Shown here piece after piece: positions 6,724-45,647 of a DNA stretch of 64,000 nucleotides. The DNA comes from Escherichia virus TH44: sequence record MT446415.1; one strand, written 5' to 3'. Every line of letters begins with the position of its first letter. Position 1 is the stretch's first letter. A program made the position numbers and the translations under genes. The notes below the pieces were generated by a model. It saw nothing but the letters and a program-made list of their open reading frames with translations, was not told where the DNA came from and ran no database searches.

Positions 6724-6735
6724 AAAGCCTCCATT

Positions 6736-6743
6736 TATAAATA
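6736..6743 (+). promoter_or_regulatory. T4-type late promoter TATAAATA for gene 4; divergent 7/8 late-like box on the other strand (6754-6761) for gene 53
   Basis: Exact TATAAATA about 28 nt before gene 4 ATG with SD taggagg in between. Confidence 0.6.
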
Positions 6744-6771
6744 AGTATATCAATATTTATTAGGAGGCTAT

Positions 6772-21516: not shown

Positions 21517-22203
21517 ATGAACAGTCCAAAAACTTTTAATTCTCAAGCTCGTGCAGTAGGCGGATTTGCAGGTCATATTTCTAATGATGATATTAAAAAC
21601 GAGCCTATGTTCTTTAACTGTGATTTGAATTTTGCTGCACAAAATGGCGGTCCTATTACTCGTAGCTTTATTACTAATCTCCCTGATGAGTGGAAAGCCG
21701 CTGAATGTGTATTTGATTCTCGGGTTCATATGTTGATGCCTGGTTGGTATCCTGCTATCCCAGGGTATCATCATGACGATGTACCACGCCCAGATATTCC
21801 GGTTGGTCAACACTTTATTACTGCAGGGCAACCTGATTATGATAATCCTCGTTACCATTCTGAACATATTCTTGGTCTTGTTAACGCTGATGTGTGTCCT
21901 ACTTATTTTGCAACCGGAACTGCACAATTTAGTCAGATTCCTGAAGGCGAACTTATCTATCGCCAGTGGCATAAAGAAGTTCTGGAAAAAATTGAGTCCA
22001 ATGAATTAACCAAGTGGGATGCTCCTGACCGTACGTTGCTCCAGTTTGATTGGCAGACATGGCATACAGGTTCTCGCGCAGTAAGTAATGGTTGGCGCTG
22101 GTTTGGTCGCGTATCTCGTAAAACTGACCGCGTTAATAAAATCACCAATGAAATTCGCGTTAATGCTCAAGTATATCTGGAATTCCCTATGGAGGGCTGG
22201 TAA
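21517..22203 (+). CDS. hypothetical protein (228 aa)
   Basis: Preceded by hairpin gtgggaccat...atggtcccac and the shared leader. Confidence 0.6.
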   Translation: MNSPKTFNSQARAVGGFAGHISNDDIKNEPMFFNCDLNFAAQNGGPITRSFITNLPDEWKAAECVFDSRVHMLMPGWYPAIPGYHHDDVPRPDIPVGQHFITAGQPDYDNPRYHSEHILGLVNADVCPTYFATGTAQFSQIPEGELIYRQWHKEVLEKIESNELTKWDAPDRTLLQFDWQTWHTGSRAVSNGWRWFGRVSRKTDRVNKITNEIRVNAQVYLEFPMEGW

Positions 22204-22790
22204 TGGCCCTTTATGAACCTGGGTGTATGGGTGTTGATGTAAACTTCATCCGTCGCCCAGAAAATGCAGGAATTATTGTCTCAAGAGACGAATTTATGAT
22301 TACCAAAAGATATTGGGCGGACCTTGATGATGGTGATGAAGGAATCAAGGTTGAAAACGTTGATTGGTCGCGATGCAATCGTCATGTGAAAGAGCTTTTA
22401 ATTAAGGAATATAAAATGGGATATATTGTTAATGGGTATCAACCGGAACCACTCAAAGAACAGACACCCGACCCATTAATTTCTTATAGCAAGAAATATG
22501 GATTTCGTACCTGGAGTGATGAATTTGATAAGTTAATTTGTTCCAGGTTTTATGCCTGGTCTGGAATCTTATTTTTACCATTCCTGTGGTTTTTCCTGAC
22601 AGGTAAAAATGAAGCATCTGTAGCTGTAATGGGCGCGTGCTTTTCTACTGCTCTTGCTGGACTTATTGCATCATTTTTATGGACTATGGTTATTGAAGTA
22701 CCTTTTCGTATTTCTAAAGTTAAAAAGGTGTACGACGATATCACTAAGAAAAATACATTGAACTCTTTTATTGAGGAATGCCGTAAATGA
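22203..22790 (+). CDS. membrane protein
   Basis: 195 aa with predicted TM helices; ATGG overlap with upstream stop. Confidence 0.6.
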   Translation: MALYEPGCMGVDVNFIRRPENAGIIVSRDEFMITKRYWADLDDGDEGIKVENVDWSRCNRHVKELLIKEYKMGYIVNGYQPEPLKEQTPDPLISYSKKYGFRTWSDEFDKLICSRFYAWSGILFLPFLWFFLTGKNEASVAVMGACFSTALAGLIASFLWTMVIEVPFRISKVKKVYDDITKKNTLNSFIEECRK

Positions 22791-23023
22791 GTATTGCAAT
22801 TTATATTAAATCCGAGTCATGTGATTCTTATCTGTATTCCTATGACACCGGAACATCAGAAGAGAAAATCAAAGAAGATTTAGAAAGTGATTTGGATATG
22901 TTCTGCCCAATTTCCGATTATATGGTCCAAATATCTGATAGTGAAAGTCCGTCAACAGAAACACGCGTTGAAATTATTATGGCCGAAATCTTTAAAAAAT
23001 CTTGGGAACGTGATGATGAGTAA
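22787..23023 (+). CDS. acidic small protein
   Basis: 78 aa ORF overlapping nudE start. Confidence 0.5.
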   Translation: MSIAIYIKSESCDSYLYSYDTGTSEEKIKEDLESDLDMFCPISDYMVQISDSESPSTETRVEIIMAEIFKKSWERDDE

Positions 23024-23468
23024 GAAAGTGAAGGAATTATCTGCTGGCATTATTTTCATGACCGAAGATAAAGAGTTATTCATGGGTCGTGTGACTGGTT
23101 CTCGTAAACCAGGTATGCCTGCGCACAAATGGGACATCCCTAAGGGTCATGTTGAAGCTGGCGAATCACCGATTGAAGCTGCTATCCGTGAAACCGAAGA
23201 AGAAACTGGGTTTACCCAATACGACCCGGCATTCTTAAAAGACCTCGGTGAATTCCGTTATTCAGATAATAAAAACCTTCACCTGTTTTTATATACGGTT
23301 CCGGTTGAGCATGAACAATTCAGACATAGTAAATGCTCTGCATATCATACCTTCCCGGATGGTAGTACGGTCCCAGAGTTCGATGCATTTGCTCTGATTA
23401 AACCGAGCCAATGGCAGTATGTGATGGGCAAATCGATGTACAAGGTAATGACTCAAATTTTCGGATAA
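23013..23468 (+). CDS. nudE: Nudix hydrolase NudE
   Basis: 151 aa; Nudix box GHVEAGESPIEAAIRETEEETG; directly upstream of e as T4 e.1/nudE. Confidence 0.85.
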   Translation: MMSKKVKELSAGIIFMTEDKELFMGRVTGSRKPGMPAHKWDIPKGHVEAGESPIEAAIRETEEETGFTQYDPAFLKDLGEFRYSDNKNLHLFLYTVPVEHEQFRHSKCSAYHTFPDGSTVPEFDAFALIKPSQWQYVMGKSMYKVMTQIFG

Positions 23469-23493
23469 TAAATACCCCTATATAAGGGGGTAT
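23467..23493 (+). promoter_or_regulatory. late-promoter-like box (aataaata) plus RBS-sequestering hairpin of the lysozyme gene
   Basis: Hairpin atacccc-tatataag-ggggtat ends 1 nt before the e ATG and contains its SD; 7/8 late box overlaps the 5' arm. Confidence 0.55.
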
Positions 23494-23494
23494 T

Positions 23495-23986
23495 ATGAAT
23501 ATATTCGAAATGTTACGCATAGATGAAGGTTGTAAGTTGGATTTGTATAAAGATACCGAAGGCTATTGGACCATTGGTATCGGGCAATTGATAACTAAGA
23601 ACCCATCAAAAGATGTAGCTCGTGCTGAGCTCGACAAGCTTATGGGTCGCGTCTGTAATGGTCGCATAACCCAGCACGAAGCTGAAACATTGTTTAATCG
23701 TTCGGTCGAAAAAGCTAAAGCCGGAATCTTGAGGCATCCTGTCTTAAAACCTGTTTATGATGTACTGGATGAAGTTCGTCGTTGTGCGCTCATTAATATG
23801 GTATTCCAGATGGGTGTTGCCGGGGTAGCTGGTTTTCCTAAGGGTATGCGATTGCTGAAGGCTAAATCATGGGAAGCCGCTGCTAAGGAACTAGCTGACT
23901 CAAGATGGTATAAAGTCCAGACTCCGAATAGGGCAAAACGAGTTATCGAAACTTTCCGTACTGGAACTTTTGACGCATACAAATAA
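23495..23986 (+). CDS. e: endolysin (T4 lysozyme)
   Basis: 163 aa; [12 protein letters not shown]...[18 protein letters not shown]...[14 protein letters not shown], near-identical pattern to T4 gpe. Confidence 0.97.
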
Positions 23987-23994
23987 GGTAAAAT

Positions 23995-24264
23995 ATGAAA
24001 ACGTATCAAGAATTTTTGGCTGAATCTGTATTAAATGAATCAGATGAAAGTCGCATGGCATTTTTAGCTAAGAAAGAAGGCTTTGAGTTTACTTCTATTA
24101 AAAAAGTTAATGGAACTTCATTTAAAGTTGGTGATTGGACCTTTGGTAACAAAGGAAATGGCCAGTGGCAAATTGTAGATAAATCTGGCAAAGAAGTGGA
24201 TTATTTGTTTAATCAGAAATTGGGTGATATCGCTAAACTTATGGGTCAATACTCTAAGAAATGA
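23995..24264 (+). CDS. CTS-tagged internal-protein-like protein
   Basis: Starts MKTYQEFLAES. Confidence 0.7.
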   Translation: MKTYQEFLAESVLNESDESRMAFLAKKEGFEFTSIKKVNGTSFKVGDWTFGNKGNGQWQIVDKSGKEVDYLFNQKLGDIAKLMGQYSKK

Positions 24265-24293
24265 TGTACATCTCCAAACGATAGGGTTATAAT
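24264..24293 (+). promoter_or_regulatory. early-promoter cassette (atgtac-N18-tataat)
   Basis: Leader ccctatcaactacggagaataaacATG before denV. Confidence 0.5.
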
Positions 24294-24319
24294 GACCCTA
24301 TCAACTACGGAGAATAAAC

Positions 24320-26830: not shown

Positions 26831-27409
<579 letters not shown>

Positions 27410-27410
<1 letters not shown>

Positions 27411-27439
27411 TGTACAAGCAGGTTGAAATGAGTTATGAT
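27410..27439 (+). promoter_or_regulatory. early-promoter cassette (gtgtac-N18-tatgat)
   Basis: Leader tatcccatcaaacaaaaggagataatcATG. Confidence 0.5.
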
Positions 27440-27466
27440 TATCCCATCAAACAAAAGGAGATAATC

Positions 27467-27925
27467 ATGACTACTATCGATTCAAGTGTTTACATTCGCC
27501 GCAATAAACTTCGTCGCATTTTTGAAACGGAGTTCCTCAAAATTAATAATGCTATCAACAAGGCTTGTAAAGAAGCAGGCCTTGAAGCATTCTTCATTAA
27601 GTACAGTCCACACCTGTTGGACCGTGCAATCCAACGTGAAATTGATGAACAATATGTTTTTGACTTGTTTGGAAAAATCACACCACATGTAAAAGAAATC
27701 GTTGAATTCCTGGAGATGAAACCACTCCCGGAAGTTGAAGCACAAATTGACCCGAATGTGAACTATCGTCCACTTCGTCTGGAAATCACAGACAAGAACC
27801 TGTGGTTAGGAATGACAGTTAACCCAGCTCTTCCTGGGAAGTCTCCGACCATGTGTTGTCGTATGGCGTTTGTTAACTCTAATCGTCTGGAAGGAAAAAT
27901 TAGCACAAAAGTGATTTATATCTAA
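27467..27925 (+). CDS. hypothetical protein
   Basis: 152 aa from ATG after aaggag. Confidence 0.6.
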   Translation: MTTIDSSVYIRRNKLRRIFETEFLKINNAINKACKEAGLEAFFIKYSPHLLDRAIQREIDEQYVFDLFGKITPHVKEIVEFLEMKPLPEVEAQIDPNVNYRPLRLEITDKNLWLGMTVNPALPGKSPTMCCRMAFVNSNRLEGKISTKVIYI

Positions 27926-41343: not shown

Positions 41344-41472
41344 TATGGATGCTCTTATTACGGTATTTTGGGCCGGAGTTGCTTTATTCGGATTGTTGTT
41401 AGTGCTAAGTTGCACTGCTAAACTATTAGGATATTAATAAATACCCTTATCTAATAATGGTAAGGGTTGATT

Positions 41473-41946
41473 ATGTTGTTGACTGGCAAATTATACAAAG
41501 AAGAAAAACAAAAACTTTATGATGCACAAGCTGGTAAGTGTCCAATTTGCCACCGTGATTTGGACTCCGATGTTCAGGCCAACCATCTTGACCATGACCA
41601 CGAATTGAACGGGCCAAAAGCTGGTAAGGTTCGCGGGTTACTATGCAATCTGTGCAATGGAACAGAAGGACAAATGAAGCATAAGTTCAGCCGTTCGGGT
41701 CTAAAAGGTCGCAATGTTGACTACCTGGAATGGTTAGAGAGTTTGCTTGTCTATCTGAAATCTGATTATACCGAAAATAATATTCACCCTAATTTTGTGG
41801 CAGACAAAGCCAAAGAGTTCGGTCGCCTAGGGAAAGAAGAAATGATTCAGGAAATGCTTTTGAACGGCATGACTTATAATGAATCTGATACGAAGCCTAA
41901 ACTACAAGCTTCATTTAAAAAACAACTGAGGAAATCACTTAAATGA
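41473..41946 (+). CDS. 49: endonuclease VII (Holliday junction resolvase)
   Basis: MLLTGKLYKEEKQKLYDAQAGKCPIC...HLDHDHELNGPKAGKVRGLLCNLCN...FKKQLRKSLK, near-identical to T4 gp49. Confidence 0.95.
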   Translation: MLLTGKLYKEEKQKLYDAQAGKCPICHRDLDSDVQANHLDHDHELNGPKAGKVRGLLCNLCNGTEGQMKHKFSRSGLKGRNVDYLEWLESLLVYLKSDYTENNIHPNFVADKAKEFGRLGKEEMIQEMLLNGMTYNESDTKPKLQASFKKQLRKSLK

Positions 41947-45089: not shown

Positions 45090-45647
45090 ATGAACGAAAT
45101 TAAATTAACCAAGAATAACTATGTAAATAATAAAGAGCTTTTGAAAGCTATTTCGGAGTGGAAACAGAAGCTGAATGCGAACACTGACCCGAACAAAATT
45201 ATTCGCCAGAACGATGTTATTGGTCTGGCGATTATGCTTATAGCCGAAGGTCTTAGCAAACGTTTTAACTTCTCCGGATATACCCAATCCTGGAAGCAAG
45301 AAATGATAGCGGACGGAATTGAGGCCGCAATAAAAGGTCTTCACAACTTCGACGAAACAAAATACGATAATCCACATGCTTACATAACAATGGCTTGCTT
45401 CAATGCTTTCGTTCAGCGTATCAAAAAAGAACGTAAAGAAATGGCAAAGAAATATAGCTACTTCGTCCATAACGTATATGATTCACGTGACGACGATATG
45501 GTGGCTCTGGCTGATGAAACATTTATCCAGGACATCTATGACAAAATGACACAGTACGAATCCTCCTTAGTTAAAGTGCCAGGGTCTGATAAGAGCACCA
45601 AAGATAAAGAGGGTGATTTGGATTTTTTATATGGAACATCAATTTGA
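45090..45647 (+). CDS. 55: late-transcription sigma factor gp55
   Basis: 185 aa; [12 protein letters not shown]...[41 protein letters not shown]..., near-identical to T4 gp55. Confidence 0.96.

Follow-up and report, generated by a model that had tools for sequence, protein, structure and literature searches.

A probable T4-type temporal translational switch in the leader of the lysozyme gene e of a Gaprivervirus-type coliphage

The nudE-e locus and its leader hairpin

The window, which is the whole 64,000-nt stretch of DNA analyzed here, derives from a T4-like coliphage of the VR7/SP18 type (Gaprivervirus), and its region 23000-24300 shows 92-96% identity to DK-13, VR7, SP18, and other phages. 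Gene e, located on the + strand at 23495..23986, encodes a soluble lysozyme (endolysin) of 163 amino acids, as assigned from its open reading frame, PF00959 (Phage_lysozyme), and phrog_7. The product shares 69% identity with T4 gpe, and the catalytic residues E11, D20, and T26 are invariant in the alignment. The preceding gene, nudE (23010..23468, + strand), which is identified as a Nudix hydrolase gene by Pfam NUDIX, phrog_1185, and the nudE annotation in relatives, is co-oriented with e and ends 26 nt before the e ATG in the gene order nudE-e-(internal protein)-denV. The window also carries gene 55 (45090..45647, + strand), whose match to phrog_234 “late sigma transcription factor” (E = 8.4e-68) identifies the late sigma factor gp55, the trans-acting factor required to recognize the box at e.

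A scan for sigma-70 promoters upstream of e yielded 10 sites versus 12.9 expected; as there was no enrichment and none of the sites was convincing, no early promoter is proposed for e, and early read-through into the gene is suggested instead by analogy with T4 and by the gene arrangement. In a sequence scan, the interval from nudE to e showed no terminator-like site on the + strand, and this absence, together with the nudE-e arrangement, is the basis for inferring read-through. The presumed source of early read-through RNA carrying the whole hairpin is nudE, the early timing being taken from T4.

Positions 23460-23500 read ttcggataat aaatacccct atataagggg gtattatgaa, and the leader sequence ggaTAATAAATACCCCTATATAAGGGGGTATTATG carries every element that the initial annotation had listed. 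A hairpin spans 23471-23494 on the + strand with 9 bp, in which AAUACCCCU pairs with GGGGGUAUU across the loop AUAUAA, and its predicted energy is -12.1 kcal/mol when it is folded alone. The 5' arm AAUACCCCU (23471..23479), recognized by folding and by its conserved, co-varying pairing, is the anti-Shine-Dalgarno (anti-SD) strand and would be present only on RNA that started upstream. The loop (23480..23485) holds the predicted late start (~23480), which is placed by the -13 to -6 promoter geometry (PMC1524935) and by comparison with T4. The region 23484..23494, as seen from sequence and folding, contains both the SD AAGGGGGU (23484-23491) and the 3' arm GGGGGUAUU (23486-23494). The initial annotation had correctly placed the SD, as aagggggt, inside the hairpin, and its stem of atacccc (23472-23478) with ggggtat (23487-23493) is present; however, 7 bp is too short, because an A23471-U23494 pair and a U23479-G23486 wobble extend the stem to 9 bp. 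The gap of 1 nt that had been placed between hairpin and start codon is closed by the same A23471-U23494 pair, so that the stem directly touches the e start codon ATG (23495-23497).

Folding of 91 nt with ViennaRNA (z = -2.07) recovers the hairpin in the MFE structure as well as in the centroid. Both structures also contain a predicted outer helix (23459..23509, + strand), in which 23459-23467 pairs with about 23501-23509 and which, on read-through RNA, would enclose both hairpin and AUG. This outer helix is lineage-specific and shows no variation by which its pairing could be tested; in its place, the T4 and VR5 leaders are predicted to form other extensions that pair across the AUG. A covariance-model search of 22800-24200 on both strands against Rfam gave no match with E up to 1.

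A hairpin between two genes may also be read as an intrinsic terminator or attenuator of the early nudE unit, in which case e would be silent early because little RNA arrives and not through a block on translation. The GenBank record of phage ATK47 indeed labels the homologous hairpin a “putative terminator determined with ARNold”, and the sequence following the stem in the window is A/U-rich (UAUUAUGAAUAUAUU). However, the + strand site is without a T-run and fails a simple terminator criterion, and a score is obtained on the antisense strand only (23489 to 23475, tail TATTTATTAT). Furthermore, early e mRNA demonstrably exists in T4, where it is untranslated (PMC3014915), and termination offers no account of the exact coincidence of the 3' arm with the SD, which holds in every lineage. 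A mainly terminating role for the hairpin is thus considered improbable, and the result cautions against giving this hairpin a terminator label of the kind found in the ATK47 record.

The late-promoter box

The box AATAAATA (23467..23474, + strand) overlaps the 5' arm of the hairpin by 4 nt and also overlaps the nudE stop codon (TAA, 23466-23468). It had been noticed initially as a late-promoter match of 7/8 (aataaata) on the 5' arm; this match was found at 23467-23474 and can be described more precisely as the standard A(-13) variant of TATAAATA, an assignment that draws on its sequence, its conservation, and the previous description of the variant (PMC2988020, PMC1524935). In a T4 list of 50 late promoters, the box is perfect in 32 and carries A(-13) in 9 (PMC2988020). 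No other natural variant of this promoter is as common, and the base at -13 is commonly A or T in RB69, RB49, 44RR, KVP40, and S-PM2 (PMC1524935). A literature search for AATAAATA found no paper containing that sequence. Since the T4-type late box spans -13 to -6 (PMC1524935), placing AATAAATA at these positions predicts a late start near 23480, within the hairpin loop. The first 5 nt 3' of the box in the window are C-rich (CCCCT), while A/T is favored in the 5 nt after T4 late promoters (PMC2988020); the C-rich sequence is nevertheless a shared feature, because P1, T4's own late promoter at e, is followed by CCTTC.

Matches to TATAAATA are frequent by composition, with 112 one-mismatch matches in the window versus 118 expected and 6 exact matches versus 5.1 expected. 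The box alone is therefore not significant, and its significance comes only from comparison and the literature. On the + strand, no other late-type box with up to one mismatch was found within 4.2 kb upstream of e, and a late transcript carrying the 5' arm would therefore have to start far away.

A second occurrence of AATAAATA precedes the baseplate gene 53. Genes 4 (+ strand, ATG 6772) and 53 (- strand, ATG 6723) diverge from a 48-bp spacer, in which gene 4 has TATAAATA on its own strand and gene 53 has AATAAATA (6761-6754, - strand) as the only [AT]ATAAATA-type box on its strand. In T4, the orthologous spacer carries TATAAATA on each strand, including that of gene 53. Judged from these sequences, the gene 53 box may serve as the window's own control for AATAAATA as a late promoter. 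The 4/53 spacer is also a two-sided palindrome, and the palindrome is present in T4 too; no description of it was found in the searchable literature, which covers the older T4 work thinly, so that it may well be known.

Conservation of the leader and predicted opening of the ribosome-binding site

Collection from 17 GenBank loci and 80 IMG/VR loci yielded 22 distinct e leaders of the Tevenvirinae type, which span Tequatro-, Gapriver-, Dhaka-, Mosig-, Jiaoda-, and Winklervirus as well as metagenomic relatives. A hairpin whose 3' arm is the SD covers the SD in all 22 (-7.5 to -15.9 kcal/mol), while the loop sequence, the stem length (6-12 bp), and the register vary. At the box position, ATAAATAC is invariant in 22/22 distinct leaders, and 13 leaders have A, 5 have T, and 4 have G at -13.

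These comparisons bear on whether AATAAATA is a promoter at all. The hairpin could be real and the box kept as a structural component or an A/U-rich element, with late expression of e depending on a different start or on ribosomes that terminate on nudE and thereby unfold the hairpin. Such a reading accommodates the chance frequency of one-mismatch boxes, the position of the last four box bases within the stem in the window lineage, and the short distance of only 26 nt from the nudE stop to the e ATG. It fits poorly with the unpaired part of the box (ATAA), which is invariant in 22/22 leaders, including lineages with the box wholly outside the stem; in Jiaodavirus and its relatives, the box is unable to pair with the sequence after the SD, and its conservation there is thus not structural. 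Boxes with A(-13) are moreover accepted late promoters, one of which precedes gene 53 in this DNA, late 5' ends have been mapped at the orthologous T4 box according to the legend of Fig. 5 in PMC3014915, and the 4.2 kb upstream of e offers no alternative late-type box on the + strand. Little probability is therefore assigned to a non-promoter role of the box.

Evidence for the pairing itself was obtained from an SD-anchored pair table for all 22 leaders and from counting pairs in ten leaders whose alignment is consistent in register. In these ten leaders, 90.9% of the cells are paired versus 45-56% when the partners are slid by 1-3 columns, two pairs are changed on both sides, and the covariation score of 0.174, versus a shuffled mean of 0.109, was reached by 0/500 shuffles. 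This covariation support is real but modest, given that the SD arm is under constraint in any case and that only two pairs in ten sequences are doubly changed. RNAalifold on a plain MAFFT alignment of the 22 leaders returned no consensus structure, owing to a one-base difference in the register of the 5' arm between lineages. The clearest substitution lies in the window lineage, which alone has C-G at the third SD pair where the 21 other leaders have U-A; this is a double, pairing-preserving (compensatory) change inside the SD/anti-SD helix. The leader of Serratia phage WSPA has a different hairpin that pairs the AUG and not the SD, and a perfect TATAAATA overlaps its 5' arm; its sequence suggests that the switch logic may be kept there though the structure differs.

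The compensatory change is also informative about a possible protective or processing function, in which the structure would chiefly shield the SD from RegB or host RNases or stabilize the 5' end of the mRNA. The window does encode RegB (27467-27922), T4 RegB cuts GGAG in the SDs of early genes (PMC3014915), and most e leaders contain GGAGG within the stem. However, the SD in the window is GGGGG and offers no GGAG target, and the hairpin has still been kept by the compensating change. In addition, the late RNA that is translated would have no hairpin to protect it, and the T4 data assign the effect to blocked initiation (PMC3014915). A chiefly protective role is accordingly very improbable.

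Chance occurrence in A/T-rich phage DNA was also considered, since a palindrome and a near-consensus box with no regulatory role could coincide. Hairpins of 7 bp or more number 95 in the window versus 38 +/- 7 in dinucleotide shuffles, and because they are so common a 7-bp stem alone proves little; with 38 such hairpins and about 118 one-mismatch boxes expected in 64 kb, either element could readily occur by accident. However, a hairpin of at least 7 bp over a fixed SD arose in only 11/20,000 shuffled leaders, the architecture is conserved across genera with a compensatory change, and the element is orthologous to one that has been experimentally proven in T4. On these sequence comparisons, coincidence is effectively refuted and is the least credible of the explanations.

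The accessibility of the ribosome-binding site (RBS) was expressed as the ensemble opening energy of -13 to +3, which replaced the mean unpaired probability over -14 to +3 because the latter separated early and late RNA poorly. For read-through RNA (-100 to +40), the predicted opening cost at e is 14.8 kcal/mol, which ranks 4/90 among the SD-bearing ORF starts in the window (median 5.1, sd 3.5). For RNA started at 23480, 6 nt after the box, the predicted cost is 2.5 kcal/mol, and it is insensitive to the exact start, as any start within 23478-23483 gives 2.0-2.9 kcal/mol. The corresponding predictions for T4 are 15.5 kcal/mol for read-through RNA, 4.6 kcal/mol for RNA from P1, and 1.9 kcal/mol for RNA from P2, so that the early-to-late costs predicted for the window mirror those of T4. 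Twelve other leaders gave predicted drops of 5.7-12.7 kcal/mol.

All 11 [AT]ATAAATA boxes in the window were scanned in the same manner, and four showed a large early-to-late fall in predicted RBS opening cost. The largest among all 11 is that of e (12.3 kcal/mol), followed by gene 4 (9.8 kcal/mol), gene 53 (9.0 kcal/mol), and gene 49 (7.6 kcal/mol). Gene 49 of the window has a AATAAATA box at 41436-41443 and its ATG at 41473, in a box-plus-hairpin design as at e, and gene 49 is a documented case in T4 (PMC3014915).

A more general proposal, in which the anti-SD and late-box module is a portable device used at four or more genes in two geometries, is possible but doubtful. The first geometry may place the box before the anti-SD (e and gene 49), and the second may place the anti-SD before a box that pairs with its complement (genes 4 and 53). 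The 4/53 palindrome may then keep both divergent late genes silent on read-through or antisense RNA, and the late transcript of each gene itself would escape. Distant e homologues (42-55% identity) have leaders of the form CCTC-ATAAATA...TATTTAT-GAGG, for which no close isolate relatives were found. These look-alike leaders were rejected as a second switch geometry: the one homologue followed up belongs to an HK97-type siphovirus or prophage, where it stands at the head of a divergent operon, and its ATAAATA is therefore not read as a gp55 promoter.

Taken together, the e leader of the window is very probably a T4-type temporal translational switch on the endolysin gene. In the proposed mechanism, RNA polymerase transcribing nudE early in infection would continue into e, producing read-through RNA that holds both arms of 23471-23494 as well as the outer helix. 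The SD and the approach to the AUG would be base-paired on this RNA, and ribosomes could not initiate. After replication begins, RNA polymerase carrying gp55 may recognize AATAAATA (23467-23474) and initiate within the loop, about 6 nt 3' of the box and near 23480. The resulting late RNA would be without the anti-SD arm, its RBS would be open, and lysozyme would be made late only. In this scheme, the early read-through, the activity and start site of the promoter, and the translational outcome are projected from T4 experiments and promoter geometry. The evidence from sequence, comparison, and the literature supports such a switch, and the match to the T4 mechanism that had been claimed initially is strengthened by the orthology to T4, the 22 conserved leaders, the co-variation, and the T4-like predicted opening costs.

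If this interpretation is true, the phage times endolysin synthesis as T4 does. The finding also serves as a check on the annotation, in that the start codon of e, the late promoter, and the operon structure of nudE and e all gain support from it. It opens no new question; what it adds is a clean case from nature of compensatory change within the SD/anti-SD helix and, at conserved positions, a further example of the late promoter with A(-13).

Comparison with T4 gene e and other known systems

The mechanism of the T4 e leader was described by McPheeters et al. in 1986 (Nucleic Acids Res 14:5813) and is summarized in PMC3014915. In T4, early read-through e mRNA forms an inhibitory structure, and lysozyme synthesis is about 100-fold lower than that from transcripts without the structure; late promoters located just upstream of the RBS produce transcripts that are without the 5' strand and are translated (PMC3014915). 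The T4 e leader, TTT-TATAAATA-CCTTC-TATAAATA-CTTA-GGAGGTATT-ATG, whose loop-box segment is also given as TATAAATACTTA, contains two perfect late boxes, one over the 5' arm and one in the loop. As in the window, the gene follows nudE, a late box lies over the 5' arm, and the 3' arm is the SD and adjoins the ATG. The stem flanks AAUAC...GUAUU are identical in both, and the window flanks ATAAATAC ... GGTATTATGAATATATT align with T4 base for base. In contrast to T4, the window has a single late box, since the T4 loop box TATAAATA has decayed to TATATAAG, which retains 5/8 matches as a remnant of the second late box. The window box has A at -13 where T4 has T, the loop is 6 nt long versus 8-12 nt in T4, and the SD GGGGG with anti-SD CCCC replaces GGAGG with CCUUC through the compensatory change. 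The outer helix also differs, and the switch has been measured in T4 and is predicted in the window lineage.

For close T4-type relatives, Uzan and Miller predicted in 2010 comparable leaders whose 5' strand contains a late promoter (PMC3014915). As far as the legend of Fig. 5A in PMC3014915 describes this set, the window leader belongs to the same class with respect to the promoter in the 5' strand, and its GGGGG/CCCC stem is a lineage-specific difference. The T4 genes 49, soc, and I-TevI also have inhibitory RBS structures that are relieved on late-promoter transcripts (PMC3014915); they share the logic of the window e leader but involve other genes and stems, and they are analogues, not orthologues. 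In Aeh1, an Aeromonas phage related to T4, an RBS-sequestering hairpin likewise limits translation of upstream-initiated mobE transcripts (Gibb and Edgell, cited in PMC3014915). Unlike e, mobE is a homing-endonuclease gene with no sequence relationship to the window leader, and late promoters of the Aeh1 type are CTAAATA (PMC1524935).

The e-type switch and its conservation in T4 relatives have already been published, and the arrangement in the window is ordinary, being the classic T4 gene e design. Its differences from T4 are small and consist of the one box, the A(-13) base, the shorter loop, the compensated SD variant, and the lineage-specific outer helix.

Leaders of e in the window and in T4-like relatives

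The SD of the lysozyme gene e (23484-23491) is GGGGG in the lineage of the window and lacks the GGAG motif that is cut by RegB; in all 21 of the other e leaders examined, GGAG is present in the SD. The same phage, whose e SD has no GGAG, encodes RegB (27467-27922). Read on the minus strand, the e palindrome with the late-box complement TATTTATTAT after it scores as an intrinsic-terminator-like site (23475-23489), which could act as a stop for antisense transcription coming from downstream. A minus-strand gene is absent near 23475-23489.

The e leader of Serratia phage WSPA (PQ600363; locus L013, 380-420) carries a perfect TATAAATA box that overlaps the 5' arm of a hairpin. What this hairpin, AAAUAGUCAUGUUA/UAACAUGACUAUUU, pairs is the AUG together with the first codons, and not the SD. 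The predicted opening cost is 13.0 kcal/mol for the early RNA, which would read through the whole leader, and 3.3 kcal/mol for the late RNA, which would begin shortly after the box. Compared with the e leader of the window, WSPA shows a different structural solution with the same logic. In five related T4-like contigs from IMG/VR (loci L019, L020, and L044-L046), the box GATAAATA occupies the conserved position, roughly 34 to 27 nt ahead of the e ATG, and has G at -13, the first position of the late box. Because of these G(-13) boxes, the -13 position tolerates A, T, or G, with ATAAATAC invariant. The leader of the 183-kb IMG/VR contig 3300045988_066415 (locus L047, about 340-400; ccgaacctcttCTAAATAtaattttagaggaggtttt) contains the Aeh1-type late box CTAAATA within the 5' arm of the SD-covering hairpin CCUCUUCUAAA/UUUAGAGGAGG, an indication that the same switch exists in a lineage having the divergent late-promoter consensus.

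There are two annotation problems among the relatives. The hairpin of the e leader of phage ATK47 (KT184309; locus L008, 474-510) is labelled "terminator (ARNold)", and phage Shf125875 (KM407600; locus L006, 500-515) has its annotated e start at an internal codon, Met6, which lies 15 nt downstream of the ATG following the SD hairpin.

Look-alike leaders of distant lysozyme genes

Distant e-type lysozyme genes with 42-55% identity (locus L098, 9945-9995; also L055, L062, L069, L072-L074, L076, L077, L080, and L081; roughly -55 to -5 relative to the ATG) are preceded by leaders with the pattern CCTC-(C/A/T)ATAAATA...TATTTAT-GAGG-ATG, and the SD of these leaders is paired. L098 belongs to an HK97-type siphovirus or prophage, as judged from its terminase, portal, protease, and major head genes, and its lysozyme gene is the first of a divergent operon. 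The RBS hairpin in the L098 leader is a look-alike, found in a phage that shows no T4-like features over the 14 kb examined.

Other sequestered starts in the window

The e design is repeated at gene 49 (endonuclease VII; PF02945 and PF09124; ATG 41473), the plus-strand leader of which (41436-41475; ttAATAAATAcccttatctaataatggtaagggttgattATG) consists of an A(-13) box followed by the hairpin CCCUUAUC/GGUAAGGG covering the SD. The predicted cost of opening the RBS is 12.1 kcal/mol in the early RNA and 4.5 kcal/mol in the late RNA. Gene 49 is included in the four T4 cases in PMC3014915.

The most strongly sequestered RBS of the window, with a predicted opening cost of 17.0 kcal/mol, is that of the endoribonuclease gene regB (27400-27470, plus strand; ATG 27467; PF10715), the SD of which, GGAG, lies inside a long stem, UGAUUAUCCC...GGAGAUAAUCA. 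No late box was found near the regB start, and its strong sequestration may be linked to the action of RegB on GGAG sites. Strong pairing, at a predicted 16.3 kcal/mol, is also seen at the start of a 195-aa membrane-protein ORF (22130-22210, plus strand; ATG 22203; phrog_2203). Here the start overlaps the stop codon that ends the preceding ORF (21517-22203), which points to translational coupling and not to a promoter switch.

Palindromic spacer between genes 53 and 4

Genes 53 (ATG 6723, minus strand) and 4 (ATG 6772, plus strand), which are late and divergently oriented, are separated by a 48-bp spacer (6724-6771, both strands) that is a single palindrome. On each strand the anti-SD GCCUCC comes first, followed by a late box, a loop, the box's complement, and finally the SD GGAGGC; the box is TATAAATA for gene 4 and AATAAATA for gene 53. 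Between early and late RNA, the predicted RBS opening cost drops for gene 4 from 16.6 to 6.7 kcal/mol, and for gene 53 from 14.4 to 5.5 kcal/mol. No description of this palindrome was found in the searchable literature. The same 4/53 palindrome is present in T4 (locus L177, 1839-1885), with TATAAATA on both strands.
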